Positions 1-36,085 are shown, numbered from the stretch's first letter. The stretch: DNA of 64,000 nt from a virus (IMGVR_UViG_3300045993_000918); one strand, 5' to 3'. The notes: generated by a model from the sequence alone, not told the origin. Numbers and translations are program-made.

Positions 1-3000
1 TGTCCGGCTCGGGGGTGGGGGTGGAGTCGTCCCCCTTCGTCATCGACCCATCGGTGTCGACCCGGAACCCGCGGCGGTTCGCCTCCGTGATCAGGCCGTG
101 CAGCCGGACCGGCGCGAGGCCGTCCGAGCCGTCGGCGAAGAACTTCGCGTCGGGTCCGAGTTCGGAGACCAGGTTGTTGACGTGCTGCTGGAGCTCCTCG
201 TCGGTGAGTTCGCGGATCGAGGCGTCGGTGCCGCGGAGCTGGCGGGTCAAGAAGTTGCTGTCGCCCGCGAACGCCTCAGCCGTGGCCTTGTCCGGGAATA
301 CGCCGCGCCCGCCGTTCTTCGACCCGTCGTCGTTGACCGTCCAGACCTCGTAGTGTCCGAAGTTCGGGTCGCGGGGGTCGAGGATCGGGAAGGAGCGGAG
401 CTCGGTGTCACCGAACGCCTCAGCGCGGGACTTCGTGCGGGCGTCGTCGGGGCCTGACGCCTTGTAGCTCGGGGCGTCGCCGAACTCGTCGGCCTCGCCC
501 TTCGCCCGCCGGACGGCCTCCTTGAGACGCGCGGTGAGCTTCCCACTGTCGACCGCCCCGGGGTCGGTCCGGATCGTCTCGGCGGCGTACTGCGAGAGCG
601 CCCCAAAGAACTCCGCGTCGAGGTCGGAGTCCTGAACGACGTCGACGCTGTCCGCGACGTTCTCGGCCCACTCGATCGCGGCGGCTCCGCCGTCCTCGCG
701 GTTCCCCGTGTGGTCCGAGGCGAGGCCCCAGACGGTGGAGGAGAAGCTCGGGCCGAGCCGCTTTAGCCGCTCGTCGACGACGTCGGCGCGGGCACCCAGC
801 GCAGCCTCGCGGTTCTGCTGCAGGCCGCCTACGCGGTCGTCTACGTCGAGGTACTCGCGGAGCGCGTCGGTCACGGCGCGGAGGTCCTCGTTCCGGCTCT
901 CGCCGAGCCGGTCGACGATCAGCTGCAGCGCGTTGGAGTTCTGGTCTTCGAGCGCCCGCTTCCCGACGATGCTGTTGAGCTGTTCCTTCACCGCCCAACC
1001 GAGGCCGTCGATCGCCTGGTAGTCGTCGAGGTAGTCGTCCGGGTCCTCGTAGCCGAGGCCGCCAGCGATGTCCAGCATGTTCTGGTAGGCGCGAACGAGT
1101 CGAGGCTCGAACTCGCCGTCGTTCTCGGTCGGGTCGGTACCCGACTCGAGCATGCTCCGGAACTCGTCGATCCGGGCGTCGAGGTTCCCGCCCTCGGTCC
1201 AGCTCGGGGTGTCGAAGTCCTCGAGGTTCGGACGCTGCGTCAGCGTCGTACCCTCGGGGCCGGACTCGAGCAGGTCGGAGTCGGCGAAGGGGTCGCCCCC
1301 GAGGCCCATCGACGCCGCCCGGCGCTCCTTCTCGGCCTCGAGTGCGTCGAGGATCTGCCGGTCCGACCGGCCGAACGAGCCGGGAGCCTGCTTCTCGATC
1401 TGGTGGTAGGTCTGGATCTCGTTGCTGAGCCTGCTGTCGCGCAGTGTGGTGAGGTCCGTGGTGTTGAACCTGGACTGCAGCTCCTTCTGCAGCGTAGCGG
1501 AGTCCGCGGCGGACTTCTCTGCCGCCATCTGCGACTCGGTGGTCATCCCCATCTCGTTGGCGATCCTGGTCAGCTCGTCGGGGACGGGGCGACCCTTCGA
1601 CGGAGGCGGCTCGAACCCGGCCTGCTCCGCGATCCCCGCGAGCTTCTCCATCCCGGACGGACCGTTCGGGTCGGGCGTGCCCGGGAGCGCGAGCGCGTCG
1701 GGAGGAACGACGGTGGCGTCGCCGGGGCCGGAGGGATCCCCGAAGAGCCCCTCAGCGATCGAACGGGCGGCGACCACCGACTGGCCGTGCTCGGCCTCGG
1801 GGTCGCCGTCGTAGCCCTCAGCGTCCGCAGGGTCGAGGTAACCCCACGACTCCTCCTCGCGATCGAGCACCTCAGCCAGCTTTGCGCCGAGCTGGTCGCT
1901 CAGTCCGGGCTGTTCCTTCGCGGCGGCCTCGAAGTCCGAAGCGACCGTGAGCGGGACGTTGACGGCGTCGACCAGGTCCTGACCCGCGTACCCCGCCAGG
2001 ATGTCATCCGGGTCGCCGCGGAGGAACAGGTCGCCCTGAGTCGCATCGTCCCCGACGCCAGGGTCGGCGGGGGCGCCGTCCGCCTCGGGGCGGTGCGGGA
2101 GGTCGCCGTCGTTCATGTCGGCGTAGCCGTCCTGGAGGTACCCCGACATGTCGTCGGCGGCGTCGGCCATGGCCGCGGAGTCGCCGGAGCGGATCGCCGT
2201 CGCGAGCGCGTCCATCCGAGTCTTCAGGTCGCTGTCGACCCAGGGGTCCTCGGCATCCTCGACGTTCGCCTCCTGGTAACCCTGCGCCTCGCTGAAGACC
2301 GCCTTCGCGTAGTCCTCGTTCGTCTTCGGGTCGGGGTCCCCGGAGCGCCAGTCGGAGTCGATGCCCTCGTAGTCCGCGGCGTCGTAGCCAGCCAGGTCGC
2401 CACCGTCGAAGGCGTCCGGGACGGACGGCTCGACGACGTCGGGGCCGACGGCGTGGTCGTCCTCGTACGGGCCGCCGCCCATCTCGAGGTTGTCGGCTGC
2501 CTGCTTGATCAGGTCCTCGTTGTCGCTGTCGAGCTGGAGCTCGGCGAACAGGTCGCGCAGCCCGCTCCTCTCGGTGCCGCTGGCCTGGCTCATGTCCCAG
2601 TTGCTCAGCACCTCAAGCGCGTCGTCCGGCGTCAGCTGGTCAGCGGTGTAGTCAGCGATGAACCGCTTGTAGTCGGCGCCCTCGTCGGCCTGGTCCACCT
2701 GGTCCGTGAAGGCCTTGTCGCGCTCGGGATCGTCCGGGCCGCCGCCCCAGCTCGGGTCGGCCTCGCTCTGGGCCTCGTCGGGGTGCTCCTCGTCGGAGCG
2801 GAGCTTCGCGAGGTGGGAGTCGGCGGACCCGCCGTCGAGCCGGGCCTTCGCGTCCGGGGCGTTGTCGAGGTTCTTCGGCTCGACCTCGATCAGGCTGCCG
2901 TCGTCGAGCTGGACCTGCACGACGATGTGCTTGCCCACGTTGTCCCGCGAGACTCCGACGGCCGTACCCTGCTTGCTCGGCTTGGCGAACCCGGCGCCGT

Positions 3001-3265
3001 CGTAGACGTTGACCCGGCCGCCGTTCTCGATGAACTGGCCGTCGCGACCGCGCGGGTGCAGCGCCTCGCTCCAGGCGGTCTTGATGCCCCTGACGACCTT
3101 GTCCCCGGCCCCGGCCGTGAGGCCCCAGCCCTCCGGGATCTGAGCCTCGGCGCCGAACGCCCGCGCCCTCCGGGTGACGTACCACCGGCTCTTCGGGTTC
3201 CGGTCCGCGTAGCGGATCGCCCCGTCCAGGTCAGCTGCCGAGGCCACAACGGGCACAGTGGACAT
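1..3265 (-). CDS. large acidic virion-associated protein, C-terminus runs off left edge (>1088 aa)
   Basis: Absent from track because no stop lies in the window. Hand translation of the minus strand is open from ATG 3265 (SD GGAGATGGAGA) to base 2 with high GC3: MSTVPVVASAADLDG... Asp/Glu-rich. Carries WSEALHPRGRDGQFIE module shared with 5150..12055. Confidence 0.75.
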   Translation of the reverse strand, partial: MSTVPVVASAADLDGAIRYADRNPKSRWYVTRRARAFGAEAQIPEGWGLTAGAGDKVVRGIKTAWSEALHPRGRDGQFIENGGRVNVYDGAGFAKPSKQGTAVGVSRDNVGKHIVVQVQLDDGSLIEVEPKNLDNAPDAKARLDGGSADSHLAKLRSDEEHPDEAQSEADPSWGGGPDDPERDKAFTDQVDQADEGADYKRFIADYTADQLTPDDALEVLSNWDMSQASGTERSGLRDLFAELQLDSDNEDLIKQAADNLEMGGGPYEDDHAVGPDVVEPSVPDAFDGGDLAGYDAADYEGIDSDWRSGDPDPKTNEDYAKAVFSEAQGYQEANVEDAEDPWVDSDLKTRMDALATAIRSGDSAAMADAADDMSGYLQDGYADMNDGDLPHRPEADGAPADPGVGDDATQGDLFLRGDPDDILAGYAGQDLVDAVNVPLTVASDFEAAAKEQPGLSDQLGAKLAEVLDREEESWGYLDPADAEGYDGDPEAEHGQSVVAARSIAEGLFGDPSGPGDATVVPPDALALPGTPDPNGPSGMEKLAGIAEQAGFEPPPSKGRPVPDELTRIANEMGMTTESQMAAEKSAADSATLQKELQSRFNTTDLTTLRDSRLSNEIQTYHQIEKQAPGSFGRSDRQILDALEAEKERRAASMGLGGDPFADSDLLESGPEGTTLTQRPNLEDFDTPSWTEGGNLDARIDEFRSMLESGTDPTENDGEFEPRLVRAYQNMLDIAGGLGYEDPDDYLDDYQAIDGLGWAVKEQLNSIVGKRALEDQNSNALQLIVDRLGESRNEDLRAVTDALREYLDVDDRVGGLQQNREAALGARADVVDERLKRLGPSFSSTVWGLASDHTGNREDGGAAAIEWAENVADSVDVVQDSDLDAEFFGALSQYAAETIRTDPGAVDSGKLTARLKEAVRRAKGEADEFGDAPSYKASGPDDARTKSRAEAFGDTELRSFPILDPRDPNFGHYEVWTVNDDGSKNGGRGVFPDKATAEAFAGDSNFLTRQLRGTDASIRELTDEELQQHVNNLVSELGPDAKFFADGSDGLAPVRLHGLITEANRRGFRVDTDGSMTKGDDSTPTPEPD

Positions 3266-3336
3266 CCGTATCTCCATCTCCGACGCCCTTGGCGGGGTTC
3301 GAGCTCGAGTTTATCAGACTTGAGGACAGCGAGGTA

Positions 3337-5149: not shown

Positions 5150-8100
5150 TCACACCGCCTTCAGCTTTGCACCCGGAGTGCCAGGCTTGAGACCGCGTCG
5201 GACGGCCGAGTGCTCCTGGGCGAGCAGCACAATCCCGAGGTACCAGGCGCGCATCCACTTGGCCCGGTCGCGAGTCGCCTGCTCCGAGACCGGAGACACA
5301 TCGGACCGGTCGCCGAGCACGGCCTCGGACGTCATCGTCAGCAGCTCGTAGCTCGCGGTGTGCGATCCGATCTTGTCGTCGGCCCAGCTGCCCGGCGCGT
5401 ACACCTTCCCGACGTACGGACTGTAGAACTCGTCGCGGAAGGCGATCTCGTACTTGCTGTAGCCGTCGCCCGGCAGGATCGTCGCCAGCTTGGTCTTCCG
5501 GTACTTGAACAGCTCCTTCGCAGTGCCCTTCTTGACCTTCCGTTCGCCCGGCTTCCCGCGGTAGCACGAGTCGGTCATCGCAGCCCACTCGAGCCGCTTC
5601 ACCCACGCAGCATTGTTCTCGACTGCGTGGTGTTCCTCGTGGATCACCGTCGAGACGGCTTCGTGGTCGCTCGGGAGGCTCAGCTCCGCGGTGCCGCGCG
5701 AGCCGCGGCGAGCGGCCCGCACCGTCACCTTGTGGCCGTCGCCCCAGGCCGTCTCGACCATGGCGGTCGGCATCTGGCGCAGGCCTTCCTTGATCCCGCG
5801 GGCCTGCACCCGGTCCGTGCTTTCGAGCGTGACCGGAGCCTCGTGCCAGGCGTAGCTCGGAAGGCGGTCGGCTGACGTTCCGTCGCTGTACTCGAAGTGC
5901 CAGGATCCATCGGACTCCTGGCGCACGACCGTGACCGTGACCGCGCGCTTGAACTTCGTCGGCCGGTTCCGGTCGCCGCCCGAGGAGACGAGGGTGCCGA
6001 CCTTGAGCTGGCTCGGGGAGACCCACGACCGATCGGTGTCCCAGACGTACGGCGCGTCGATCTCTTCGGGCGCCCCGAACGGCACACCCAGGCGCTGCAG
6101 CAGCTCGACGTAGATCGCCTTCCGGCGCTCGAAGTACAGTCGACGCTCGTTCCCGAGCGGGTTCCCGGTGCGTGACTTGAGCGTCTGCTCGAGCCGCTCC
6201 GCCCAGGCAGCGAGCTCGGGCCCCACGGCTGCGTCGTAGTCGCGCTCCCAGTCAGAGTCGATGTAGTTCTCGTGGTAGACGTGGTCGGTCCGGTCGAGCC
6301 AGGCCATGATGTAGTCGCGCCGGTTGGTCACGCCGCGGCTCTTCAGCACGTCGGCTGCGGCCTCGTCGAACGCCTGCCACTTCGCGTCGTCGAAGTCCGC
6401 CAGCAGCTGCCGGTACTTCTTGACCTCGGTCGCGTCGGGGAAGATCTTCGCGGCGTCGAGCCCTTCGGCGGCGAGCTGCGCATCGACCTCGTCCTCGAGC
6501 GCCTGGCCCATCGCGACGACGGCCTCGAGCTGCGCGACCGTCGTCTCGCCCGGGCCACCGTCCGGCATGTAGTCGACCTGCTGGATCGAGTTCTGACCAC
6601 GCTCGAGGCGCTTCTTGAGCATCAGACGGTTGCCCTCGAGCGCGTCCCGCGCTCGGTACCGGAAGTCAGCCGCCTCCTCCGCCTGCCTGCTCATCGAGAC
6701 GGAGAGGTAGTAGTCGTCGGTGTTGGTGTGACTCCAGTAGTACGGCGACGCGTAGTTCCTGACTCGCGAGAGGAAGGCCGGATCGAACTCGTTGGCCGGG
6801 TCGAGAACCGAAGCCGGAGGCTCGACCAGCGTGATGTCCTCCGGGTCCTTCATCCCGGCGTGCTGGATCGCCTCGTACCACACGGCCAGCGCGTTGCGGC
6901 GACGCTCGTAGAACTCCGCGAGGTTCTTCTTCTTGACGTAGCCCGCGTCGGTCTCAGGGGTCCACGACCCGTCCGCGAGGGCTCGGGCGTTCGCGGCCTT
7001 CTCGGTCGAGTCGGCGGCGTTCTTGCGCAGCCTCCGCGCCCGCTTCACCGGATCCCAGTTCTCCAGCGTCTCATCGCGCAGGTTCGACTTCCCAGGGACG
7101 CCGAACGTCTCGTAGGAACCGACGCGCATGACGTACTGGAACCCGTCAGTCGTGCGCTTCCCAAGCACCCGCACTGTGCTCTTCGGGGGCGGCACGTCCT
7201 CGCTGCTGGGGTGGTCCCAGTCGTTGACGAACCCACCTGGCTCGGCGGCCCGACGCTCATACTCCGCCCGGACAGCATCGACCCAGTCCTCCCAGGCCTT
7301 CGCCTCGGCCAGGTGGGCCGTGGCCTCGCGCTCGTAGCGCCCGACCATCGCGTCCTGCTCCGGGTCCCGGTCGCCCGTCGTCAGTCCGATCTCGCTCGGG
7401 TCGTCCGGGAGCTTCTCGCGTGCCCGCGCCACGCGTGCGTGCGCACGCTCGACCGCTTCCGGGCTGAGCACGGGGAGGAACCCAGTGACCGGATCGGCGG
7501 TCAGCCCCATCTGCTCTGGAGAGATCGCGTCGGCCGGGCCGGACCGCCCTCCGGCCTCACCTTCGGAGAATATCGGGCGGTAGTCCTCGAACCGGAGCGA
7601 GCCGTCGGGGTTCTGGTGGTTCGAGACGTCGTCATCCCAGTTCTGGTTCGTGGTATAGAGCGTCTTCCCCGAGCTGAGCTTGACTTCGGGGTGTGCCCGG
7701 CTCTCGTAGGTGAAGTGGTGCTCACCGACGGCCTCGAAGTCCGCGAACTTTGGCGGAGCGTCGACATGCCCGACCCACCGGGCGAAGTGCAGGTCACCGT
7801 CGACGTCGACGGTCACCATCGCGGTGCGCGACTTCTCCGACGTACGCTTGAAGTCCCAGGGTCCCTCAGCCCCGACCTCCATCGGCGCTGCGGTCACGAG
7901 GATGTGGTTCGCGTCGACGACCTCCGCGGCCTCGATCCAGTAGATGTGGTTCGCGTCGTCGTTCGGGAGCAGCTGGCGCCCTCCGTCACTGACGTGCAGC
8001 GTCCCGCCGTCCTGCGTGATCGCGCTGGAGTGGACCATCCCGTTGTTCCCGCTGAATGTGTCGCCGTAGAGCCAGACGGAGCGGTCCCCGGGGAGGTCGA

Positions 8101-11100
8101 TCGAGAGCGAGACATCGGCGGCGCCCCACTCCGCGGTCGGGACCTTCGACCACATCGCCGCGAACCCAGCCGCACTAGTCGGAGCGGCCACCCGCGCCTT
8201 GGCCGGGACGGAGACGTGCGGTGTCTCCTGCGCCGAGATGCTAGTCTGCGGGAGCGGCGGCGCGATGGCGTCGGGGGAGTCGGCGTCAGCGTCGTCACCG
8301 TCGAGCATCGAGATCCCGACGCCAGACAGCGCAAGCGCTGCGGCTCCGCTCGCGACCAGCTTCCGGATCAGCGAGGTGCGCATCCAGTTGTGACTGTGCA
8401 CCTGCCGGGTATCCAGCGACCTGGTCTTCGCCAGGATCTCCTCGGCGGTCGGGACGACCTCCAGGACCTCGTGCACCTCGTCCGCGTCGTACGGCAGGAC
8501 GTGGTCCCCGACCCTGATCTCGGACGCGGGCGAGCTCGCGTAGTGCCGCGGCGCCCAGCTCGAGCCTTCCCACCGGTCCGACTCGTCCACGGACGGCGCG
8601 GGGCCGGACGGCGCGGGGCCGGACGGCGCGTCGCGGCGCTCCCGGCCGCCCCCTCGCACGTGGTAACCCTCGTCGATCGACTCGGCGCTGACGGAGCCCG
8701 CCGAGCCACCCGCCGACGGACGCCACCGGCCGTCTTCGAGCTTCGTGTAGAACTGACGGCCGGGTCGCTCAACGATCGTACCAGGCGAGAGCGCGTCGAG
8801 CTCTCCGAGGCTCAGCCCCTCCTTCGGGTCGAAAGGTGTAGCAGTGTACGAGCCGTCGTCGTTGATCCACCCGGCGAACGGGTCGTCGACGCGGTTCTTC
8901 TTGGTCTTCTTCCGGTGGCTCGCGACCATCCCGGCGCGCACCTCGTCCGGGTCGACCCCACGCTTCTCAGCGATCGCAGCGACGACGATCTCCATCGCCT
9001 CCCAGCTCGCGCGCTTCTGCGAGTCGGGCTTGTAGCTCCAACCGATGTAGTCCGCGGCGCCGCTCCACCAGTTCAGCGCGGCGCGCTCGGTGCGGAACGT
9101 CTCGCGGATCCCGCCGTCGTTGATCACCAGCGGCTCGCCCGTGGCCGTCGGCGCGTTGGCCTTCGCCTGCGCCTCACGCTCGAGCTTCGCTTGCGCCCGG
9201 AGTTCGCGGTCCTCCGCGGCCTTCCGCTCGTCGGGGGAGAAGATCCTGGTCTTCCGGTTCAGCGCGCTGACCGGTGCGGTCGGGTAGCACGTCGTGCAGG
9301 CCCTCTCACCAGCGTCACCGACGATCCGGTCCTCCTTCTCGTCGGCATACTCCGGCAGCCAGATGAACTCAGTGCCGCCCGACCAGGTCCCGTCGGGGCG
9401 GTACTGCCCGGGGCGGCAGGTCGAGCACTCCCGGCTCTTGTGTACGTGCCCCCCGCCGGAGGACGTCACGAGGAAGGCGCGCGTCCACCTGCCGCGGCGG
9501 TGGAACTCGCCCCTGTAGACCTCTTCGGCGGCTACCGCGACGCGACGCCTCTCCTGCAGCGCGTCGTACCGGGTACGCAGGTCGACGGTCCCGTACTCCT
9601 GAGTGGTGTAGTTGTACTCCTGCTTCGGCTCGTAGGCCGCGAGCACGTCAGCGAACGGCATCGCGTACAGGCGGTCATCCTCGCGCCACTTCGGCTTCTC
9701 ACCGGCCTTCTCGGTCCCGCCCGGCGTCGCGCGCCGGATCTGGTCCTGCAGTCGCGCAACCTCAGTCGCGACCTCGTACTGCTCGACCCAGGTCTGCTCG
9801 GTGTTGACGTCGATCTGCTTCGGTGAGAGGTCCTGGATCGCCGCGACGTCCGGATGCAGCCAGTCCTCGGTGAGTGCGGGTCGGACCGGCGGAGGGGTGT
9901 CTACGGGGTCGGAGACCTCCAGCGGAGGCGGAGGGACGGGCGCAGGCTCCGGGTCCACCGCAACCGGACCCGGAGGCGTCTTCTGGTCTACGTACGCAGC
10001 GCCGCGGTGATCGGTGGCGCTGAGCGCGTCGCGGATGGCATCGGCGCGACTGCGGAACCCGAACCGCTCACGCTGCGTACCGGGGAGCACGCCGGGCTCC
10101 GGGGCCCACGACCAGAGCGTCGCGTCCTTCCGGCTGCTCACGATCCGGCCGGAGCCTGGGCTCTTCTTGTCGATGTACCCCTCGTACGACTTGACACGGC
10201 CGAGCTTGGTTCCGTCCGGGGCGTACACACCGTAGGCCTTGCCGTCCCCCGAGCCGCTCTCGAGGACGACGGCGAACGTCTCCGGTGCGACGGGCCCCGG
10301 GTTCGGTGCGATGGGCCTCGGGAGGCCTTCGTCGGCCTTCTCGGGGGCGACGTCGCCGCGGAGCAGAGCGGCCTTCCGCTGCAGCGCCCGCAGCTGCTCC
10401 TCACGGTCGAGCTGGTAACCAGCAGCGACAGCCCGCCGCACAGCATCGGTCAGGCTGTTCGTGTCGATCGTGTCCTGAGCGCCGATAAGGGCGACGCGAA
10501 GGTCCTCGTCGTCTCCGGCGGACACGGCGTAACGCAACCCGCCCCTGCGGGAGTAGTAAGTGTGGACGACGGCGCGGGTCTGCCGGTCGCCGACGTACAC
10601 GTCGAACGTGCTGGCGTACTGGGCGACCGCCCCGGTATCGGGTCGGACCCACACGGCCTCGCCATTTGAACCGTCCACGCCCTCGATCGGGACAGACCAA
10701 CGCCCATCGGAATCCTGCCGCGCCTGGGACGGCGGGGTCAGCCCGACGCCGATGGGCTTCTCGACCACCGGAGGCGGAAGCTCCGCGGGGTCGGCCGCCT
10801 CGACGGGCTCCGATCCGCCCCTCGCCTCCTTCAGCGCGGCGTCCCGGGCGTCCGACATGTCGGTCATGCCGGTGACGGCCATGTAGCGCTGGACAGCCGC
10901 GTTGCGGGTGTCCCGCTTCTTCATCTTCTCCCGGTCGCCCTTGGGGGACGCCTGCCAGGTCGCCTCGGCCTCCGCGACCGCCGCGGCGGCCGAAGCGCGG
11001 TCGGCGCCGGGCTCCGGTACGTTCGGGGCGGGGTCGGGCTTCGGCGTCGGTGGGATGACCGCCTTCTTCCTCGGGGTCGGGTTCGTGCCGCGCTTCGTCA

Positions 11101-12055
11101 GGGCCATGGTGACGGCACCGCGGCGAGCGGCGAGCTTTGCGGAGCTGGAGCGGTACTGCGCCATCAGCTCGTCGTGCGGGAGATCGGACCGGTTGGTGAC
11201 GTCCATCTCGTCGTAGTACTCGGCATCGGCCCGGCTCATCCGGAGGACGGCCCACAGCGCGATCACCTCGCCGGTGTTGATCGACTCGCCGCGAGCGATC
11301 TTCCGAGCTCCGGAGCCGATCCTGTCGGCGAGCTCCTCGAGGGTCGGAGCGCGGTCCTTGCCCTTCTTCTCATCGTAAACCGCGGAGAGGTTGTTGAGCC
11401 CTTGAGCGCGCAGGCCGTTGAACGCGTCCTCGAGGGTGCGACCGGTCTCCGGGTCGACCACGACCTGCTCGGTCGTCCACCCGACCCGGCCCGACTTGAT
11501 CGTGTCCTCGATCTCGTACGGAGTCATCGGCCGACCGTCGTCGCCCAGCGGCGGCCACTCCGAGCTGGTCGGCCCCGAGCTCGAGGGGATCTCGGCCTTG
11601 ACCGAGGCGGTCTGGACCTGGTCGTAGTCGAAAGTCGCGTCGGTACCTCCGGCGGCCTCGGACCGAAGCACGACCTTCCCGTCGCTGAACCCGACGACGC
11701 GGCCGGACGCTACCTCCCGTGCCCCGTCGAAGACCTGCGCGAACGCGCCGACCTCGATGAACCTCCCGTCCCGCCCGCGCGGGTGGGCGTCGGCGTCCCA
11801 GACGCGCCCGAGGGCGCCCGCGACGTCGGGTGCGATGCTTGCGTGCTCAGCCATGCGGCCGATTGTACTCGCAGTCAAGCCCATTTCACGACCGCGTCGC
11901 ACGATGTGCGTGGCCGAGCCGAAGAGGTCCGGCGTACGTCCGGCTGCGAGCAGCGCCGCGATCACGTCGTCGACGTCCTCGATCGGGAGCCGACCGTCCG
12001 GCGTGGCGACGCCAGCGCGGGCCGCCTCGGCAACCCGGGACGGGGTCCAGATCAC
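5150..12055 (-). CDS. giant mosaic (polyvalent-type) virion protein, 2301 aa
   Basis: Track ORF 5150..12433. First 126 codons are Arg-rich and overlap the portal gene, so start set to GTG 12055 (GTGA overlap with portal stop). Modules: HPRGRDGRFIE, Cys/His Zn-ribbon-like GHVHKSRECSTC...ACTTC, hydrophobic helix, WLYGDTF domain, C-terminal HEEHH (HExxH). Confidence 0.8.
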   Translation of the reverse strand: MIWTPSRVAEAARAGVATPDGRLPIEDVDDVIAALLAAGRTPDLFGSATHIVRRGREMGLTASTIGRMAEHASIAPDVAGALGRVWDADAHPRGRDGRFIEVGAFAQVFDGAREVASGRVVGFSDGKVVLRSEAAGGTDATFDYDQVQTASVKAEIPSSSGPTSSEWPPLGDDGRPMTPYEIEDTIKSGRVGWTTEQVVVDPETGRTLEDAFNGLRAQGLNNLSAVYDEKKGKDRAPTLEELADRIGSGARKIARGESINTGEVIALWAVLRMSRADAEYYDEMDVTNRSDLPHDELMAQYRSSSAKLAARRGAVTMALTKRGTNPTPRKKAVIPPTPKPDPAPNVPEPGADRASAAAAVAEAEATWQASPKGDREKMKKRDTRNAAVQRYMAVTGMTDMSDARDAALKEARGGSEPVEAADPAELPPPVVEKPIGVGLTPPSQARQDSDGRWSVPIEGVDGSNGEAVWVRPDTGAVAQYASTFDVYVGDRQTRAVVHTYYSRRGGLRYAVSAGDDEDLRVALIGAQDTIDTNSLTDAVRRAVAAGYQLDREEQLRALQRKAALLRGDVAPEKADEGLPRPIAPNPGPVAPETFAVVLESGSGDGKAYGVYAPDGTKLGRVKSYEGYIDKKSPGSGRIVSSRKDATLWSWAPEPGVLPGTQRERFGFRSRADAIRDALSATDHRGAAYVDQKTPPGPVAVDPEPAPVPPPPLEVSDPVDTPPPVRPALTEDWLHPDVAAIQDLSPKQIDVNTEQTWVEQYEVATEVARLQDQIRRATPGGTEKAGEKPKWREDDRLYAMPFADVLAAYEPKQEYNYTTQEYGTVDLRTRYDALQERRRVAVAAEEVYRGEFHRRGRWTRAFLVTSSGGGHVHKSRECSTCRPGQYRPDGTWSGGTEFIWLPEYADEKEDRIVGDAGERACTTCYPTAPVSALNRKTRIFSPDERKAAEDRELRAQAKLEREAQAKANAPTATGEPLVINDGGIRETFRTERAALNWWSGAADYIGWSYKPDSQKRASWEAMEIVVAAIAEKRGVDPDEVRAGMVASHRKKTKKNRVDDPFAGWINDDGSYTATPFDPKEGLSLGELDALSPGTIVERPGRQFYTKLEDGRWRPSAGGSAGSVSAESIDEGYHVRGGGRERRDAPSGPAPSGPAPSVDESDRWEGSSWAPRHYASSPASEIRVGDHVLPYDADEVHEVLEVVPTAEEILAKTRSLDTRQVHSHNWMRTSLIRKLVASGAAALALSGVGISMLDGDDADADSPDAIAPPLPQTSISAQETPHVSVPAKARVAAPTSAAGFAAMWSKVPTAEWGAADVSLSIDLPGDRSVWLYGDTFSGNNGMVHSSAITQDGGTLHVSDGGRQLLPNDDANHIYWIEAAEVVDANHILVTAAPMEVGAEGPWDFKRTSEKSRTAMVTVDVDGDLHFARWVGHVDAPPKFADFEAVGEHHFTYESRAHPEVKLSSGKTLYTTNQNWDDDVSNHQNPDGSLRFEDYRPIFSEGEAGGRSGPADAISPEQMGLTADPVTGFLPVLSPEAVERAHARVARAREKLPDDPSEIGLTTGDRDPEQDAMVGRYEREATAHLAEAKAWEDWVDAVRAEYERRAAEPGGFVNDWDHPSSEDVPPPKSTVRVLGKRTTDGFQYVMRVGSYETFGVPGKSNLRDETLENWDPVKRARRLRKNAADSTEKAANARALADGSWTPETDAGYVKKKNLAEFYERRRNALAVWYEAIQHAGMKDPEDITLVEPPASVLDPANEFDPAFLSRVRNYASPYYWSHTNTDDYYLSVSMSRQAEEAADFRYRARDALEGNRLMLKKRLERGQNSIQQVDYMPDGGPGETTVAQLEAVVAMGQALEDEVDAQLAAEGLDAAKIFPDATEVKKYRQLLADFDDAKWQAFDEAAADVLKSRGVTNRRDYIMAWLDRTDHVYHENYIDSDWERDYDAAVGPELAAWAERLEQTLKSRTGNPLGNERRLYFERRKAIYVELLQRLGVPFGAPEEIDAPYVWDTDRSWVSPSQLKVGTLVSSGGDRNRPTKFKRAVTVTVVRQESDGSWHFEYSDGTSADRLPSYAWHEAPVTLESTDRVQARGIKEGLRQMPTAMVETAWGDGHKVTVRAARRGSRGTAELSLPSDHEAVSTVIHEEHHAVENNAAWVKRLEWAAMTDSCYRGKPGERKVKKGTAKELFKYRKTKLATILPGDGYSKYEIAFRDEFYSPYVGKVYAPGSWADDKIGSHTASYELLTMTSEAVLGDRSDVSPVSEQATRDRAKWMRAWYLGIVLLAQEHSAVRRGLKPGTPGAKLKAV

Positions 12056-13635
12056 GCCGGGACCTCCTCCTGCATCGGCACGGCCGAGAGGCCCGGGGGC
12101 GCTGCCTCGATCGCGACCGGAGCCGGAGCGGATGTGGCGGCGAGCTGCTCCTGCAGCCCGGGCGGGAACGGACTGGCCGACTGGTTCGAGGTCTGCGCCT
12201 TCTTGAGCACCTCGGGCATGAGGAACATCAGCAGCGCCTGCGAGATCTCCTCCGGGATGATCGCCTTCTCGACTGCCATCCGCCAGGTGATCTCCTCCTC
12301 GGTCGGCGCGTCGTTGTCGCCGAACCCGTGCGCCGCGCGCCAGGCCTCGCCGGAGAGGATGTACTTCTCGTACCCGCTGTCGGCGTCGTTGCTGCGGTTC
12401 GGCCGGACGACGACCTCGGACGGGTCGTACCACACGACGATCCGGTTGACATCCTCGGTCTCGTAGCCCGCGGCGCGCAGCAGCGGCCGGAGGTAGATGT
12501 CCGTGATCGCGTCGCAGAACATCAGCGCCAGCGGCTCGATGTGCGCCTTGTACAGGCCCTCGTCGATCTGGATCGCGTTGCTGTATTTGACGTTGGCCAG
12601 ACCGGTCACGATGTCCTTCGGCACGTCGATCCCCTGCAGGATCCGCTCGAGCACGCGCTCAGCCCGGTTGACCAGCGCCTCGTCGCTGTCGCGGCTCAGC
12701 TGGATGTACGCGATCTTCTCACCCTGCTCGGCCGGACCGCGAACCAGCAGCGGGACAACGCTCGCGGCGCTGCCCTCGTCGCTGATCGGCTGGGTCATCG
12801 CGGCGACGAGCTCGACCTCGAACGGATCCTCGCCCTCGGTCTCCTCCTCCCCGGGTGTGCGGGCCGAGATCGAGAGCGAGTCGGGCACGAACAGCAGACC
12901 GGCGTTGAGCCGGGAGCGGGTCGTCGCCCGGATCATCCGGCTCAGCAGCAGCAGCTCCTCGCAGTCCCCGCGGAGCGCCTTCATCGAGCTGTCCGGGTCG
13001 GCGCTGAACCGCGGGTGCGCCCGCCAGATCCGGCCGATCGGGGTGTCCTTCGGGATGACCTTCTCCCGGGCGGTGCTGGTCGAGACCGAGGCCTTGAGCA
13101 CGATCCGCCCGGCGCTGTTGACCCGCAGCTCGTCGACGGACTTCACACTCCACCGGTTCTCGATGCACACGAGGTAGCACTCGCCCGGGACGCTCATGTT
13201 CAGGCCGTAGGAGCGCAGCATCGCCGGGATCCCGTCGCCCTGACTCAGCTGCTCCATGAAGCGCTGGGCGTCCTTCGCCAGCCTGGGGTCGATCGGAGTC
13301 AGGCCCTGCAGCGGGCCGTCGTCGGCGTACTGCCCCTCGCCTTTGACGCCCGCGGCATCCGTGACGTTCGTCGGCGGGGCGTCAGAGTTGAGCACGGCGG
13401 AGGCGACGAGACGCACCCGGCTCAGCACGTTCGCGACCAGACCAAACCCGAACTTGACCTCGCCGATCGCGTCGTAGTACGCCCAGGCCTCGGCCTGCCA
13501 CTCGGCGTTCGGGCCGCTCAGACGCTCGCGCATCTGCTCGGCCTCGCCCTTCTTCGAGAGCGAGACCTTCGCAGCCGACGCAGTCAGCGTGCGGGTCTGG
13601 TTGTACGGAGCGGCCCTAGGCCTTCCGAACACCAC
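12052..13635 (-). CDS. portal protein
   Basis: 527-aa track ORF downstream of the terminase genes. Size and composition typical of SPP1-type portals. Alternative start ATG 13533 (MRERLSG). Confidence 0.75.
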   Translation of the reverse strand: MVFGRPRAAPYNQTRTLTASAAKVSLSKKGEAEQMRERLSGPNAEWQAEAWAYYDAIGEVKFGFGLVANVLSRVRLVASAVLNSDAPPTNVTDAAGVKGEGQYADDGPLQGLTPIDPRLAKDAQRFMEQLSQGDGIPAMLRSYGLNMSVPGECYLVCIENRWSVKSVDELRVNSAGRIVLKASVSTSTAREKVIPKDTPIGRIWRAHPRFSADPDSSMKALRGDCEELLLLSRMIRATTRSRLNAGLLFVPDSLSISARTPGEEETEGEDPFEVELVAAMTQPISDEGSAASVVPLLVRGPAEQGEKIAYIQLSRDSDEALVNRAERVLERILQGIDVPKDIVTGLANVKYSNAIQIDEGLYKAHIEPLALMFCDAITDIYLRPLLRAAGYETEDVNRIVVWYDPSEVVVRPNRSNDADSGYEKYILSGEAWRAAHGFGDNDAPTEEEITWRMAVEKAIIPEEISQALLMFLMPEVLKKAQTSNQSASPFPPGLQEQLAATSAPAPVAIEAAPPGLSAVPMQEEVPA

Positions 13636-13924
13636 GCGTGACCACCGCCTCTGAGACGACCGACTGGACGTACGAAGTTGAGTTTACCACGGCGGTCGTT
13701 GCCGCGGCCAGAGCCAGAGCGTACCGCAACTTCGGGGGCACCAACCCCGTCGCCACGGCCAGCCCTGCCCACAGGCTGACGCAGTGCGGACACTCGAACC
13801 AGTATGCCAGCGGACTGTCCGGCCACCGCTCGTTGACTGCTTCGCGCGCCGGACGAGTGATCTCGTCCTGCGTGACCAGCCGAGCGATGCGCCAGACAGC
13901 CGCAGCGTCGATCAGGACGCCCAT
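13616..13924 (-). CDS. membrane protein, DUF1360-like
   Basis: 102 aa; RLVTQDEITRP...WFECPHCVSLWAG pattern plus hydrophobic C-terminal half. Confidence 0.6.
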   Translation of the reverse strand: MGVLIDAAAVWRIARLVTQDEITRPAREAVNERWPDSPLAYWFECPHCVSLWAGLAVATGLVPPKLRYALALAAATTAVVNSTSYVQSVVSEAVVTRGVRKA

Positions 13925-24887: not shown

Positions 24888-25261
24888 CTCCCCGTCTCTC
24901 GTGCGAACATCGCCATCGAGGCGTACACCAGCGTGTCGCTCCAGGTGTCGAAGCTCGGCGTCTTGCCCTTGAGCATCGCATCGGCGACGCGCTGCACCTT
25001 CCCGTAGACGTAGAGGAAGCAGCCGATCTCGACGGCCTCCCGCTCCTCGATCTCGCGGCCCTGGCCGCGGGCGAAGATCCGGCCCATCTCGACCAGCGAG
25101 TTAGTCCCGTACTCCTCAGCCTTCGCCGCGATCGTCGGCGCGTTCGCGTCGACCCAGGCGTGGAACCAGTCCGGGTACGCGACCGGCGGGGCGACGACCC
25201 CGGTGATCGCGGACGGGTGCCGGGTCATCGACTCCGACCGCATGCCCTCCTCGTCCGTCAC
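24878..25261 (-). CDS. MazG-like all-alpha NTP pyrophosphohydrolase candidate (MazZ-like)
   Basis: 127 aa, GTGA-coupled to the purA-like gene. Acidic helix motifs AEEYG, EIEEREAVE, DTWSD. Assignment is by pattern and context only. Confidence 0.4.
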   Translation of the reverse strand: MTDEEGMRSESMTRHPSAITGVVAPPVAYPDWFHAWVDANAPTIAAKAEEYGTNSLVEMGRIFARGQGREIEEREAVEIGCFLYVYGKVQRVADAMLKGKTPSFDTWSDTLVYASMAMFARETGRWP

Positions 25262-26340
25262 AGCCAGGCCGATGGGTTGTAGACGCTCATCGTGTTCGGG
25301 CCCGTACCGACCAGCGCGACCGGCGCGGCAGCCTCGATCGCGATCGTGTCGAGGAAGTCGCGGTGCGTCTCCTTGAACTCGTCCGGCCGGGCATCACGCA
25401 GCTCCGGGTACTTCTGGTCGAGCATCGAGAGCGCGAGCACGACGTCGCGGCTCGGGCCGCCGTTCGCGCGCACCGCCTGGCTGACCCAGTCGGCGTCCCA
25501 GTCCCCGACGCGACGCACCTTCTTCGTCACCGTGGTCAGCTCCTCGGGCAGCCCGAGCGCCTCCCAGGTCGTCTCGGACGCGAGGTATCCGCTGTTGCCC
25601 GCGACGCGGATCGGATAGACCCGCACGACGACCACGACGCGGACCCGGCTCACGCCCTCGGCCCACGGGCTGACCCCGGCCATCGAGAGGAAGTCGATCG
25701 CCCGGCAGTCCGCCGTGGTGCACTTCGGGTAGTGCCCGGCGTGCAGCCCGAGCTGGTAGCCCTGGACGCCCTCGATCACGACGTGCCAGCCCTCGCTCAG
25801 GCGCCGGGAGAGCAGCGCCGCGGTGTTGACCACCCGGCCGGGCACCCCGCCGTTGACGGCGAAGTCGCCGATCAGCCGGGCGCCGCGCAGCATCCGGTCC
25901 GCCCGAGCGGCGCCGACGCCCTTCGCCGTCGAACCGATCGCCTTGTGCAGGTCGAGCGCAGCCTCGGTGTCCTTGTGCTTCTGCTCGATCACCGTCGACT
26001 CCGGGTCGACCCAGAGCCGATCCGCGATCCGGTGCCCGGCGGCCTCGAGCTCGGAGACCTCGGACCGGAGCACGTCGAGGTCGATCTCGGACCCGGCGGC
26101 GATCACCAGCGCGGCGTTCGGGTTGACGAAGCTGACGGGCACGTGCCGGAGTGGCCAGGCGCGGCCGGAGTCGTCGTAGACCGTGTGCCCAGCCTGGCTC
26201 CCCCCGACCCGCACCCCGACATGCGGGGTCTTCGAGCTCGCGTCCTCGTAGGCGAGGAAGCCGGTCGCGGCCCCCTTCGCCTCCGAGCCCGCCTGGCCGC
26301 CTACCACCACGGTGATCAGGCCCTGTCGTGAGATGGTCAT
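25258..26340 (-). CDS. purZ: short adenylosuccinate synthetase homologue, PurZ candidate
   Basis: 360 aa. Aligns by eye to PurA: GGQAGSEAKGA vs GDEGKGK P-loop (Asp to Ser), GGSQAGHTV, IGSTAKGVG, IEGVQGYQLG..GHYP, TTVTKKVRRVGDWD, VGTGPN. SD AGGAGGA. Confidence 0.7.
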   Translation of the reverse strand: MTISRQGLITVVVGGQAGSEAKGAATGFLAYEDASSKTPHVGVRVGGSQAGHTVYDDSGRAWPLRHVPVSFVNPNAALVIAAGSEIDLDVLRSEVSELEAAGHRIADRLWVDPESTVIEQKHKDTEAALDLHKAIGSTAKGVGAARADRMLRGARLIGDFAVNGGVPGRVVNTAALLSRRLSEGWHVVIEGVQGYQLGLHAGHYPKCTTADCRAIDFLSMAGVSPWAEGVSRVRVVVVVRVYPIRVAGNSGYLASETTWEALGLPEELTTVTKKVRRVGDWDADWVSQAVRANGGPSRDVVLALSMLDQKYPELRDARPDEFKETHRDFLDTIAIEAAAPVALVGTGPNTMSVYNPSAWL

Positions 26341-26371
26341 CAGTCCTCCTGCTAGGGGCGGTCGGGAACAG

Positions 26372-26406
26372 CCCGGCCCGGCCCCAATCGTAGCAGCCGG
26401 GCCGGG
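26372..26406 (-). promoter_or_regulatory. perfect 11-bp stem-loop in purZ leader
   Basis: cccggcccggc / gccgggccggg arms, 13-nt loop, about 30 nt upstream of ATG 26340. Confidence 0.6.
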
Positions 26407-26417
26407 ACTCTAGCTCG

Positions 26418-26426
26418 AGGCTACCA
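26418..26426 (-). promoter_or_regulatory. extended -10 TGGTAGCCT upstream of purZ candidate
   Basis: Overlaps the stop of the upstream gene. Transcript would begin just before the 11-bp hairpin at 26372..26406. Confidence 0.35.
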
Positions 26427-27020
26427 GCACTGCTTCGGCGGGTAGCTCCAGTTCGAGCGCCCCTTGCCACCAGCGAAGAGCTTGTAGAACGCGGCGTCCT
26501 GGATCGCGCTCGAGTAGTCCTTCGCCGAGCCGGGCAGGCCGGTCACGGCCCGCCAGGTCGAGTCGATGAACTGGTACGCGCCAGACGCACTCGAGTAGCG
26601 ATTCTGCGCCCGGTAGTTCCCGTGGCTCTCCCGGGCAACGATGCAGCGCCGGACCGCCTCGACCCAGGCCGAGCCGCGCGCCGCTGGCGGCAGCGCCTTC
26701 GGCTTCTGGACGACCTTCTTCTTCTGCTGGACGACCGCCTCCTTGACCGCGGGCCTCGGAGCGGCCTTCTTCGCCGCGGGCGCGACCACGGCCACCCGCG
26801 TGGTCGTTCGCGAGGCGGGCGGTGCGAGCCGCAGGCGGGCGACCGGGTCCGGCACGAGGTCCGGGGACGCCCCGTCGTACACCACGTTGGGGGTCTCGGC
26901 GGCCTGAGCGACCTGGGTCGGGCCGTCGGGCCCGAGGGCCGCCCCGAGAACGACGAAAGCCCCGGCGACTGCGATCGCGGCCAGGGCCTTCGGGGAGCGA
27001 ACAGAGCTGTGTACCTTCAC
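26421..27020 (-). CDS. secreted peptidoglycan hydrolase, Rpf/transglycosylase-like C-terminal domain
   Basis: GTG 27020 after GAGGAAGAGG. N-terminal signal/TM ALAAIAVAGAFVVLGAA. C-terminal CIVARESHGNYRAQNRYSSASGAYQFIDSTW. Confidence 0.65.
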   Translation of the reverse strand: MKVHSSVRSPKALAAIAVAGAFVVLGAALGPDGPTQVAQAAETPNVVYDGASPDLVPDPVARLRLAPPASRTTTRVAVVAPAAKKAAPRPAVKEAVVQQKKKVVQKPKALPPAARGSAWVEAVRRCIVARESHGNYRAQNRYSSASGAYQFIDSTWRAVTGLPGSAKDYSSAIQDAAFYKLFAGGKGRSNWSYPPKQCW

Positions 27021-27200
27021 TTCGACCTCTTCCTCGTGGCCGACGCTGACCCTGAGGCACGGTCCCGCGAGGTACCGCGCCCGGTTCGAATGCTCGCGTT
27101 CACGATGAGCAGAGATGGGCCAGCGTCGACGTGCGAGGGTGGCCGGTCGGTTGACCGACCACCGCCGAACCCGCGGTAGCAAGCCCGCGGGGACTCACCC

Positions 27201-29563: not shown

Positions 29564-30021
29564 GTCCCCGCCTCCGTCGTCGGCTCAGCCGGGGCGCGAC
29601 GGATGTCCGCTGCCATCTGCGTCCGCACGCGGGCCTCGATGAGCGGGAGGACGGCGGCTACGGCGAGTGCGGCGAACTTCTCCCGCTCGTGGAGGTGCAG
29701 CGGACCCTCACTGACCTCGGAGTCGGCCATCGCCTCGCTCGCAGCCCGCACGATCGCCTCGTCGGAGATGTTCTCGCTGACGAGACGACGGCCGTGCCGT
29801 TCGATCGCGGCCAGGTGGTTCAGGAAGTCGGGGTGCGACGAGAAGGTGATGCCGCACTCCACACACTTGACTGGGCGGTACTCCACTACGGCTCGGTCGG
29901 TGGTCGGTGCGGGAGCGACGTAGGAGGGGCAGGCGCAACCTTCCTTGAAGCATTGAGGCCCTGCGGAGAAGTGCTGATACTTGTCGTGCGCGCAGTTGGC
30001 GCAGGCTCGGTCGGTGGTCAC
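29560..30021 (-). CDS. zinc-finger hypothetical protein (153 aa)
   Basis: Track ORF; CANCAHDKYQH...CFKEGCAC...CVECG. Confidence 0.65.
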   Translation of the reverse strand: MTTDRACANCAHDKYQHFSAGPQCFKEGCACPSYVAPAPTTDRAVVEYRPVKCVECGITFSSHPDFLNHLAAIERHGRRLVSENISDEAIVRAASEAMADSEVSEGPLHLHEREKFAALAVAAVLPLIEARVRTQMAADIRRAPAEPTTEAGT

Positions 30022-32009: not shown

Positions 32010-32015
32010 GGGACC

Positions 32016-32024
32016 AGCCTACCA
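32016..32024 (-). promoter_or_regulatory. extended -10 TGGTAGGCT, leaderless DNA polymerase start
   Basis: 6 nt upstream of ATG 32009. Confidence 0.45.
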
Positions 32025-34071: not shown

Positions 34072-34646
34072 AGCGGCCTCCGATCGAAGAGGAACGTGGA
34101 CGTCACGACACCCACCTTGTGCGCACTCGAGCCCGGGAACGCCTCGAGGAACCGCTCGACGCTCCAGTCGTCCTCGACGTGCGTCTCGTAGGGGTTCCCG
34201 TCGATCGGGCCCTGCGGGAAGTGCATGGTCGGGAGGCTGACCACGACGAGCTCGGCCCACTCGCGCATGCGCGCGAGCAGCACCCTCGCCTCGTCCTCAG
34301 CCATGTGCTCGAGCACGTCGCCGAGGATCGCGACCCGGGTCGGCTCCTCGTTCCACTCCGCCCACGGGTTCGGGACCTCGCTCAGGTCGAACTCGCGGAC
34401 GTCCGCGCAGACGACCTGCCAGTACCGGACCCCGAGGTCGAACCGGGCGATGCTCGGCTCCCACACCTCGAGCGCGACCCAGGCCTGCCGAGCTCCGATG
34501 TCCTGCAGAGCGGAGTGGACCACGTCGAGCCAGGTCCCACCCCCAGCCCCGACGTCTAGGAAGAGGTACGGACGGCCGGTCGCGAGGGCGTCACGGCGGA
34601 TCGCCGAAGCGGCCCACCACTTCCCCTCGGTCGAGGACCAGGGCAT
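34068..34646 (-). CDS. class I SAM-dependent methyltransferase
   Basis: Motif I LFLDVGAGGGTW and acidic loop. ATG 34646 in TGATG overlap. No DPPY/NPPY DNA-MTase motif seen. Confidence 0.6.
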   Translation of the reverse strand: MPWSSTEGKWWAASAIRRDALATGRPYLFLDVGAGGGTWLDVVHSALQDIGARQAWVALEVWEPSIARFDLGVRYWQVVCADVREFDLSEVPNPWAEWNEEPTRVAILGDVLEHMAEDEARVLLARMREWAELVVVSLPTMHFPQGPIDGNPYETHVEDDWSVERFLEAFPGSSAHKVGVVTSTFLFDRRPL

Positions 34647-35392
34647 CAGGCGACCCGCAGGTCGACCGCAGCGAGCATGCCTGGCCCGGGCGTCGTGAGG
34701 TCGCCGCGGAGCCAGCCGAGGCTGTGCGTCACGGCGGCCTGGTAGCGGTAGACCGCCTCCGTCATCGCCTTCGTCTCGTTCCCGTAGTAGCCGGTCGCAC
34801 CGTTCGGGTTGAGCGTCCCGAGCCGTCCGACCTTCGCGAGGAACGCCCGGAGCGCCCGCTGGTAGACCAGCACGTCGTTGTTCCGGAGCCCGTAGCGCAG
34901 CAGCGCGAGGTGCACGGCCGGTCGGGTCAGAGCGTCGCGCGCAGCAGCGATGTCCGCTGGGTACCGGTCGTACCAGCGCTGGAACGCGGCCTGGATCATC
35001 GACCAGGCCTCGAGGTTCGAGTCGTGGAGGTTCCCAGCCCAGCCGGTGAGCCCGAGCCCCCAGGTCCCCCAGTTCGATCCCCCGCCGGTCCACTTGAACG
35101 CGAGCGAGGCGTTGAATGCGGGCTCGAGGATCTTCGCCCAGTCCGCCTCACCGATCCCGGGACGGTGCACGCTCTCGTTGATCTGGAACAGCCCGTAGTC
35201 GTACGAGCCGTTCGGGTTCGGTCCGCCGACGATGTCGTAGTACCCGCCGGACTCGGCCATCGCCTTCGCCCAGGCGGTCCGGCGCCGGTAGAGACCGACC
35301 GGGCTGGTGGTGGTCGGGTAGTCCGGGTCGGGGAATCCCGCCTCGATGAGGGCCTGGTCGAGCGCGAGGGCGTCGAGCTTGTGTAGGGTCAT
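34646..35392 (-). CDS. lysozyme-like lytic transglycosylase with C-terminal cell-wall-binding-like domain
   Basis: AESGGYYD...YDYGLFQINESVH (GH23/SLT-type motif). C-terminal LVYQRALRAFL...GYYGNETKAMTEAVYRYQ. Confidence 0.65.
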   Translation of the reverse strand: MTLHKLDALALDQALIEAGFPDPDYPTTTSPVGLYRRRTAWAKAMAESGGYYDIVGGPNPNGSYDYGLFQINESVHRPGIGEADWAKILEPAFNASLAFKWTGGGSNWGTWGLGLTGWAGNLHDSNLEAWSMIQAAFQRWYDRYPADIAAARDALTRPAVHLALLRYGLRNNDVLVYQRALRAFLAKVGRLGTLNPNGATGYYGNETKAMTEAVYRYQAAVTHSLGWLRGDLTTPGPGMLAAVDLRVA

Positions 35393-35906: not shown

Positions 35907-36085
35907 GCGGTCGCCCTCCAGGTCGCCGCGATCGCGCCGCGCAGCCACTCCGCTGCGCAGGACTCCGCCTCGTACGGGGACCAGTCGTCGGCCAGGAGCT
36001 TGGCTCGGAGTCCCTTCGCCGCCTCTAGGATCGGGTCCAGCTGCTCCATCGCGGTGACCAGGGCCTCGGCCAGTTCGTCGCTCAC
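35903..36085 (-). CDS. small helical protein (60 aa)
   Basis: GTGA overlap with purB stop; MSDELAEALVTAMEQL... Confidence 0.45.
   Translation of the reverse strand: MSDELAEALVTAMEQLDPILEAAKGLRAKLLADDWSPYEAESCAAEWLRGAIAATWRATA

Follow-up and report, generated by a model that had tools for sequence, protein, structure and literature searches.

A shortened relative of GH183/DUF5005 glycosidases, joined to a membrane helix, forms a mobile cassette in portal-adjacent giant phage proteins

Why should a giant phage protein encoded directly beside a portal gene contain a membrane-anchor-like helix and, behind it, a domain that resembles a glycoside hydrolase? The question is posed by a 64,000-nucleotide stretch of viral DNA (IMGVR_UViG_3300045993_000918; hereafter the window), for which a sequence-only reading had proposed that an ejected fragment of the giant protein is anchored in the membrane and digests envelope polysaccharide from inside, that the responsible domain is DUF4185-like, with a hint that the host carries arabinogalactan. 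Our analysis assigns the domain to a shortened new branch of the DUF4185/DUF5005 (GH183-related) superfamily and not to DUF4185 itself. Together with its helix it forms a cassette that is mobile between giant phage proteins and that is also encoded on its own, in secreted or anchored proteins. It is a variation on two known kinds, wall glycosidases of the GH183 type and polyvalent proteins of phage heads. With a probability of roughly 55%, we read the giant protein as a packaged and processed multi-domain head protein that would deliver a membrane-anchored wall glycosidase at infection.

The giant gene occupies positions 5150-12055 on the minus strand and encodes 2301 residues plus a stop codon in one unbroken open reading frame (ORF), immediately downstream of the portal protein gene (12052-13683, minus strand; phrog_776, E 2e-105). 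The enclosing minus-strand ORF extends over 5150-12433 (2427 codons); the gene start is the GTG at 12055, which is preceded just 5' by AGGAGGAGG and lies directly past the portal gene stop. A database protein, P0213, is identical to the giant protein and of equal length. The window has a G+C content of 70% with nearly every gene on the minus strand, and the G+C content at third codon positions (GC3) along the giant gene is even (0.84-0.94), on which ground a recent horizontal insertion visible in base composition was rejected. Also rejected as a gene was a plus-strand ORF at 6272-9826, whose translation, rich in Arg, Val, Leu and Gly, is that of a high-GC shadow frame.

All peptides quoted by the sequence-only reading exist on the minus strand of this one uninterrupted ORF, including the motif peptide AADVSLSIDLPGDRSVWLYGDTFSGNNG at 8039-8122 and IYWIE at 7931-7945. 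They belong to a four-part cassette spanning 7568-8560 (minus strand). A small conserved domain of ~60 residues (giant protein residues ~1166-1224; motif L..GD.VL...VHEV..V) is followed by a basic juxtamembrane stretch, the two covering 8384-8560, and BLASTP similarity to 11 other carriers begins here. Next comes a single hydrophobic helix, LIRKLVASGAAALALSGVGISML (residues 1229-1251; 8303-8371), which is separated by an acidic, Pro-rich linker (8186-8302), variable in length and sequence among homologues, from a short-form GH183/DUF5005-like domain of beta-propeller type. This last part starts with WGAADVSLSIDLPGDRSVWLYGDTF and comprises ~205 residues (~1291-1496; 7568-8182), a position that fits the predicted residues 1290-1500; the helix lies upstream of the motif as had been described, at a distance of 60 residues and not ~50.

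Across all 2301 residues, no 19-residue stretch outside the helix reaches a mean Kyte-Doolittle hydropathy of 1.6. It is flanked by basic residues on its N side and by the acidic run DGDDADAD on its C side, a charge asymmetry that alignment shows to be conserved across carriers, where the basic juxtamembrane motif takes the form K/R-S-x-I-K/R-K/R. This pattern predicts an orientation with the N terminus in and the C terminus out. A metagenome-scale protein set yielded 92 word-indexed homologues of the domain (37-57% identity, E 1e-29 down to 3.5e-80), almost all of them stand-alone proteins of 220-300 residues. In 83 of the 92 there is an N-terminal hydrophobic segment, many with lipobox-like ..GC.. 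motifs, and the short-form family is therefore normally secreted or membrane-tethered. The helix of the giant protein aligns with this N-terminal signal or anchor, and the start methionines of the homologues align on the Met of 'MRTSLIRKLV...' (8381-8383) just before it. Likewise, in each of the 10 carriers whose cassette is internal or extended, a hydrophobic helix directly precedes the domain. The anchor-like helix that had been noticed inside the giant protein thus stands as its sole strongly hydrophobic segment, conserved before the domain in relatives, and these data support the view that it is a functional partner of the domain and no accident.

How, then, does the domain relate to DUF4185? 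The giant protein and the isolated domain show no match to the Pfam model PF13810 (DUF4185) at E<=1, nor do the family consensus and eight of nine members at E<=10. The best PF13810 match among family members reaches E 0.016 and 14.8 bits over profile positions 10-40 only, compared with a gathering score of 39.5 bits. PF16396 (DUF5005) does not match the window domain at E<=10 in a current Pfam scan; precomputed matches to it, weak or faint, exist for about 40 of the 92 homologues. By sequence, neither the giant protein nor the family profile found anything in the PDB beyond spurious UMP1 matches at E ~1, and the BFVD library of viral folds held nothing at E<=1e-3.

The connection runs through longer proteins. 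A profile of the 93-sequence family alignment, termed A2, matches proteins of 340-480 residues at whole-library E values of 1e-20 to 1e-35. Eight of ten scanned proteins of this intermediate size match Pfam DUF4185 at E<=0.01, four of them above the 39.5-bit cut-off (P0350, 64.7 bits; P0319, 62.8; P0314, 47.8; P0322, 41.8), often with a weaker DUF5005 match as well. By phmmer, P0350 reaches both the GH183 endo-D-arabinanase EndoMA1 (8IC1) and BACOVA_04882 of Bacteroides ovatus (4HBS) at ~1e-3, and 4HBS is tied to DUF5005 via the phmmer and Pfam matches of P0350. Profile-profile comparison with hhalign against a DUF4185 alignment built around the lysin domain of Gordonia phage GMA6, for which activity has been reported (PMC10115798), returned E 4.9e-5 at a probability of 68% over 30 columns, corresponding to the first-blade motif, and paired the two invariant aspartates of the family with the invariant D29 and D47 of that alignment. 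The comparison is informative only against the alignment; with the lone GMA6 sequence it was insignificant (probability 1%).

Structure prediction leads to the same relatives. The AlphaFold2 model of the window domain is confident (predicted local distance difference test score (pLDDT) 95.9, predicted TM-score 0.91), and its best Foldseek match in the PDB is 4HBS (E 6.2e-5; query-normalised TM-score (TMq) 0.42, that is, a partial match only), followed by EndoMA1 (8IC1; E 2.7e-3, probability 1.0) and then by five-bladed propellers of families GH32, GH43 and GH68. Two motifs frame the shared region. An N-terminal W-G-x-x-D-x(17)-D-[ST]-F is common to the family, P0350, 4HBS, GMA6 and EndoMA1. 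At the C terminus, HP..L..G..L..T.QNWDD...DYRPIF has a counterpart in 4HBS (HP..L..G.L..S.N...W...DFYRPYF), and its QNWDD...DYRPIF portion resembles the DUF4185 ending SQWNT...PYrvmQF. Taken together, these results support the domain as a real, distant relative of DUF4185/GH183 that has both catalytic aspartates. The motif itself had been identified correctly, and of the 'DUF4185-like' label the distant homology stands, on profile matches, fold and motifs, whereas membership in the Pfam family does not.

Catalysis by GH183 enzymes depends on a pair of aspartates separated by 17-22 residues (PMC10115798; PMC10509167; PMC13444075); in EndoMA1 these are the nucleophile Asp33 and the acid/base Asp51, and Arg198 and Glu243 are essential as well, their mutation abolishing activity (PMC10509167). 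In the window domain the predicted nucleophile is Asp1314 (D31 in domain numbering; 8114-8116, minus strand), which corresponds to EndoMA1 Asp33 and falls on D29 of the GMA6-clade alignment. Asp1332 (D49, in YGDTF; 8060-8062, minus strand) is the predicted acid/base, corresponding to EndoMA1 Asp51 and aligning with the aspartate of the DUF4185 FGDT motif. Both residues are invariant in the 93 sequences, and their spacing of 18 residues is that of P0350, 4HBS, GMA6 and EndoMA1. Polar residues conserved to at least 90% in the family are H59, S60, Q65, H71, Q78, W90, H164, Y167, H172, N189, W190 and R210; the window copy retains every highly conserved one and is thus an intact member of a family under selection.

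What the short form lacks is the middle. The A2 profile matches full-length DUF4185-type proteins in two pieces, an N-terminal one (profile ~34-175 with protein residues ~30-185) and a C-terminal one (profile ~208-256 with ~320-375), between which 100-125 residues have no counterpart in the short form. From the nucleophile to the closing YRP.F strand the distance is 174-186 residues in the short form, compared with 302-306 in P0333, GMA6 gp45 and a mycobacterial DUF4185 protein. The model consists of 14 strands, which would amount to about three four-stranded blades plus the closing strand, roughly two blades fewer than in the five-bladed enzymes, a count in keeping with the modest Foldseek TM-scores of 0.42 against the latter. 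Residues ~150-280 of EndoMA1, which include Arg198 and Glu243, align with the segment of the intermediate proteins that is absent from the short form; conserved residues elsewhere, such as R210, H164 or H172, might take their place. By its sequence, the domain therefore keeps the predicted nucleophile, the acid/base residue and the closing strand, and is without ~125 middle residues.

The established GH183/DUF4185 set comprises EndoMA1 (8HHV/8IC1), Rv3707c, DgGH4185a/b, EatA and the GMA6 gp45 lysin domain. These enzymes are extracytoplasmic, act on actinobacterial walls and are in some cases phage-encoded, and the window domain shares with them the N-terminal blade motif with both aspartates and the closing-strand motif at the C terminus. 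It differs in carrying a membrane helix and in residing in a portal-adjacent giant protein instead of a lysis cassette. From DUF5005, whose model has 443 positions and whose 4HBS chain, from Bacteroidota, has 406-416 residues, it is set apart by being about half as long and belonging to actinobacterial phages; 4HBS is its nearest solved structure and is itself uncharacterised.

Such domains are common in metagenomes. An exhaustive search with a hidden Markov model of A2, counted in representatives of clusters at 50% identity, gave 743 at E<=1e-3, 231 at E<=1e-10 and 117 at E<=1e-30. Members were found in phage-like contigs, in ten IMG/VR viral contigs and rarely in cellular genomes: full-length short-form genes occur in only ~8 of 185,579 species genomes, and the cellular carriers are metagenome-assembled genomes of Nanopelagicales, Intrasporangiaceae, Jatrophihabitans, Pseudonocardiales, Nocardioides and unclassified Actinomycetota, with none from Mycobacteriales. 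Among 50,697 deposited phage genomes, tblastn found no copy of the domain. The ~205-residue domains are thus a compact branch outside the models of Pfam, NCBIfam and PHROGs.

When the giant protein was compared by BLASTP with the larger proteins of the family, each aligned over one segment, giant protein residues ~1166-1500, and nowhere else; by these alignments the cassette is the sole shared part of otherwise unrelated giant proteins, and it recurs in further uncultured actinobacterial phages. Their settings are of one kind. The window protein (P0213; 2301 residues) comes directly after a portal gene. P0219 (L089; 1756 residues) lies between a portal gene and genes for an S78 prohead protease and capsid, and has 2H phosphoesterase and topoisomerase IB domains. 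P0257 (L090; 3015 residues) is itself a portal protein with the cassette at its C terminus, followed by a protein of >3800 residues with zeta-toxin and helicase domains. P0246 (1522 residues) precedes a Peptidase_S78_2 gene, P0230 (1065 residues), which has a 2H domain, follows a portal-MuF fusion, and P0235 (656 residues) consists of Phage_Mu_F and then the cassette. Neighbourhoods of portal, MuF and prohead protease fit a packaged, ejected protein.

The isolated phages nearest by terminase, Actinomycetia phage DSL-LC01 (54% identity) and Gordonia phages GodonK and GMA2 (~50%), have giant post-portal genes of 3289 and 1479 residues without the cassette, and BLASTP detected no similarity between the window's giant protein and GodonK gp67 or the 3289-residue protein of DSL-LC01. 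The portal of the window is 45% identical to that of DSL-LC01 and 41% to that of GodonK; a scan of IMG/VR with it found nothing. At the DNA level the giant gene has no match among deposited phage genomes.

Multi-domain proteins of phages and conjugative elements, among them effectors fused to MuF or portal, have been described as polyvalent proteins, proposed to be packaged and delivered with the DNA, with lysozyme-type domains breaching the wall at invasion (Iyer et al. 2017, PMC5512222). As a large multi-domain phage protein in a virion neighbourhood adjoining the portal, the window protein is of this type. The likeness extends to the sister carriers, which hold MuF, portal, 2H phosphoesterase and topoisomerase domains and have zeta-toxin genes adjacent, and to the wall-breaching enzyme domains of the described proteins. 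The wall enzymes reported there are lysozymes, SpoIID-like transglycosylases and DD-peptidases; neither 'transmembrane' nor 'glycoside hydrolase' occurs in that paper, in which respect the present cassette differs. HExxH metallopeptidase domains were proposed to process the polyprotein, a zincin-like MPTase being the commonest, although not universal, hub domain (PMC5512222). Close to the C terminus of the window protein lies an HEEHH motif (5627-5641, minus strand), a candidate zincin-type metallopeptidase site by motif only: nothing in Pfam matched at this site. A search for homologues of the last 796 residues came back empty, and a single-sequence AlphaFold model of the last 292 residues was discarded at pLDDT 35. 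Elsewhere in the giant protein, the Pfam scan gave only sub-threshold noise (PDZ_4, SPAN), and PHROGs matched only the function-unknown families phrog_15500/2433 at residues 870-1189 of the 2427-codon ORF, with none on the domain; NCBIfam matched nothing.

Two observations concern the surroundings of such proteins. Several carriers have short Arg/Gly-rich motifs 5' of the cassette, for example VRxVRTPxGxxHxGQPIGSV and RVPxGNGxxSGRWL, and the N terminus of the window protein holds the similar AHPRGRDGRFIEVG; such motifs may recur in these head proteins as linkers or targeting signals. Downstream of the giant gene, a second very large minus-strand ORF (2-3310; at least 1103 residues) runs off the end of the window. 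It matches neither Pfam nor PHROGs, a 57-residue stretch of it resembles the start of the >3800-residue protein that follows the portal-cassette fusion in L090, and it may be another polyvalent protein.

On the reading that we favour, the giant protein would be packaged in the capsid, cleaved into fragments and released from the virion together with the DNA. The cassette fragment would then become anchored in the host membrane through its helix, the glycosidase-type domain pointing toward the wall, where local cutting of a wall glycopolymer, which need not be D-arabinan, would aid genome entry. Processing is implied by the presence of cytoplasmic-type enzymes on both sides of one helix: a topoisomerase IB domain is C-terminal to the cassette in P0219 and P0297, and in P0219 a 2H phosphoesterase is N-terminal to it, an arrangement that calls for cleavage and not for a simple inner/outer split by the helix, since one uncut chain could not have both enzymes in the cytoplasm. 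Wall hydrolases carried by the virion and used at infection are familiar from the lytic transglycosylase T7 gp16 and from the hydrolase motifs of tape-measure proteins. Like T7 gp16, the cassette would be a virion-carried enzyme, with membrane-interacting segments, that opens the wall locally at genome entry; unlike the window domain, which has its own single-pass anchor, enzymes of that type act on peptidoglycan and have unrelated folds. The window domain's family is, to our knowledge, known only for furanoside-type (arabinan) hydrolases. Of the earlier idea that an anchored, ejected fragment digests the envelope from inside, ejection fits the portal, MuF and prohead-protease neighbourhoods, whereas 'from inside' is only one of the possible topologies.

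Several points weigh against this reading. Packaging, ejection and proteolytic processing of the giant protein are all inferred from synteny, and no MuF or MPTase-PolyVal domain of Pfam was detected in the window's giant protein. The domain has no direct family match in Pfam, NCBIfam or PHROGs. The fold match is partial only, with low TM-scores (0.42, query-normalised) and a large root-mean-square deviation, and, the Arg198/Glu243 region being missing, arabinanase activity of the domain is not to be assumed. In addition, stand-alone copies in other phage contigs sit among early or replication genes and not among virion genes, so that the cassette can also work from within the infected cell.

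This last observation underlies the foremost alternative, which we regard as rather unlikely: Sec/YidC would insert the giant protein or a fragment late in infection from inside the infected cell, and the outward-facing glycosidase would remodel or strip a wall glycopolymer, conceivably as a lysis aid, for destruction of receptors to free progeny, or as a block to superinfection. In keeping with such a route, stand-alone members have classical signal peptides, lipoprotein signals or signal anchors, a few family members are ordinary secreted proteins in cellular genomes, and the only characterised phage GH183 domain, the lysin of Gordonia phage GMA6, is encoded in a lysis cassette (PMC10115798). 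Set against this, each of the six large carriers examined either belongs to a block of portal, MuF and prohead-protease genes or is a fusion with portal or MuF, a placement not easily reconciled with a lysis factor deployed purely from within the cell, and the window has a separate endolysin candidate elsewhere (53937-55067).

It is distinctly less probable that the short domain is no longer an enzyme and that, with two blades lost, it serves as a carbohydrate-binding or anchoring module tethering the fragment to wall glycan. The ~125 missing residues, which include the EndoMA1 Arg198/Glu243 region, and the partial match to five-bladed hydrolases (TMq 0.42) would be expected of such a module. 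The invariance of both aspartates in 93 of 93 sequences, within a dense set of polar residues conserved to at least 90%, is instead the pattern typical of an active site under selection. Nor is a third acidic residue universally required: DgGH4185b remains largely active when its conserved glutamate is replaced (E381A) (PMC10115798).

That the cassette is a separate product translated from the internal Met at 8381-8383, or that the 2301-residue ORF is mis-assembled or fused, is very improbable: this Met does align exactly with the start Met of stand-alone homologues, yet no Shine-Dalgarno-like sequence precedes the internal ATG, in contrast to the AGGAGGAGG of the giant gene start, and homology to other carriers begins ~65 residues upstream of it, for which reasons an internal start before the helix was rejected, while the absence of any stop across 2301 codons, the even GC3 and the recurrence of the embedded arrangement in independent contigs speak against an artefact.

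As to the host, the evidence does not support the suggested bearer of arabinogalactan. None of the cellular homologues is from Mycobacteriales. The endolysin candidate at 53937-55067 (minus strand), which has a C-terminal PG_binding_1 domain, found Streptomyces phage endolysins in 38 of 38 tblastn records among deposited phages, and a PurZ-like gene has its nearest relatives in the Streptomyces phages Galactica and Hiyaa. For a minor tail protein, Arthrobacter and Streptomyces phages hold the closest proteins; terminase and portal alone point partly to Gordonia phages. No LysB-type esterase or cutinase, markers of a mycolata host, was seen in the ORFs scanned, the window being only part of the genome. 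This evidence points to a Streptomyces-like host, likely one without arabinogalactan, and the non-Mycobacteriales cellular homologues and Streptomyces-phage-like endolysin argue against an arabinan substrate. A DUF4185-like motif alone is hence no indicator of an arabinogalactan-bearing host.

A bolder proposal, which we advance only tentatively, is that the domain, with about three blades, is a minimal but active glycosidase and the smallest catalytic unit of the GH183/DUF5005 propeller superfamily, working as an unusually small propeller or as a two-copy assembly. It would be a membrane-anchored, phage-specialised depolymerase delivered from the capsid by portal/MuF-linked polyvalent proteins, with a non-arabinan wall glycopolymer of Streptomyces-like actinobacteria as its substrate. 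If this is true, CAZy would gain a family or subfamily, and ejected phage proteins would be shown to carry a new class of cargo. GH183 was recognised only in 2023 and has so far comprised housekeeping arabinanases, a phage lysin domain and a type VII-secreted toxin; activity of the present domain would reveal to what extent their propeller fold can be reduced. On the favoured reading, the cargo of head-packaged polyvalent proteins would come to include a wall glycosidase that brings its own membrane anchor and does not act on peptidoglycan, and the family could supply enzymes to dissect actinobacterial wall glycopolymers.

Some further genes, in the window and beside other cassettes, deserve mention. 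Zeta_toxin/AAA_33 genes lie directly downstream of cassette genes in two unrelated contigs, at 11238-12428 in L001 (behind the stand-alone P0009) and from 17358 onward in L090 (behind P0257), which may reflect a functional pairing of a wall-precursor kinase with a wall glycosidase. In the window, a family-2 glycosyltransferase with C-terminal TPR repeats (55109-56476, minus strand), near the tail and lysis region, may modify the host wall or a surface glycan. Two further minus-strand genes resembling wall enzymes stand among the replication genes, one with an Rpf-type Transglycosylas domain just below cut-off (26421-27194; E 7.8e-6), the other with a lysozyme-like SLT_3 domain (34646-35422; E 2.2e-12). 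The C-terminal region of a 220-residue ORF at 45297-45959 (minus strand) weakly resembles HicA_toxin (E 2.4e-4, under the cut-off of Pfam), and a tRNA scan of the window found none. Finally, the PurZ-like adenylosuccinate synthetase gene (25258-26409; Pfam 2.9e-35; 47-51% identity to the 'PurA-like / 2-aminooxy adenylosuccinate synthetase' of Galactica and Hiyaa) is accompanied by a Lyase_1 (PurB-like) gene (36082-37437) and a family-A DNA polymerase gene (30018-32018), all on the minus strand; the phage probably has a Z-genome, with 2-aminoadenine in place of adenine.

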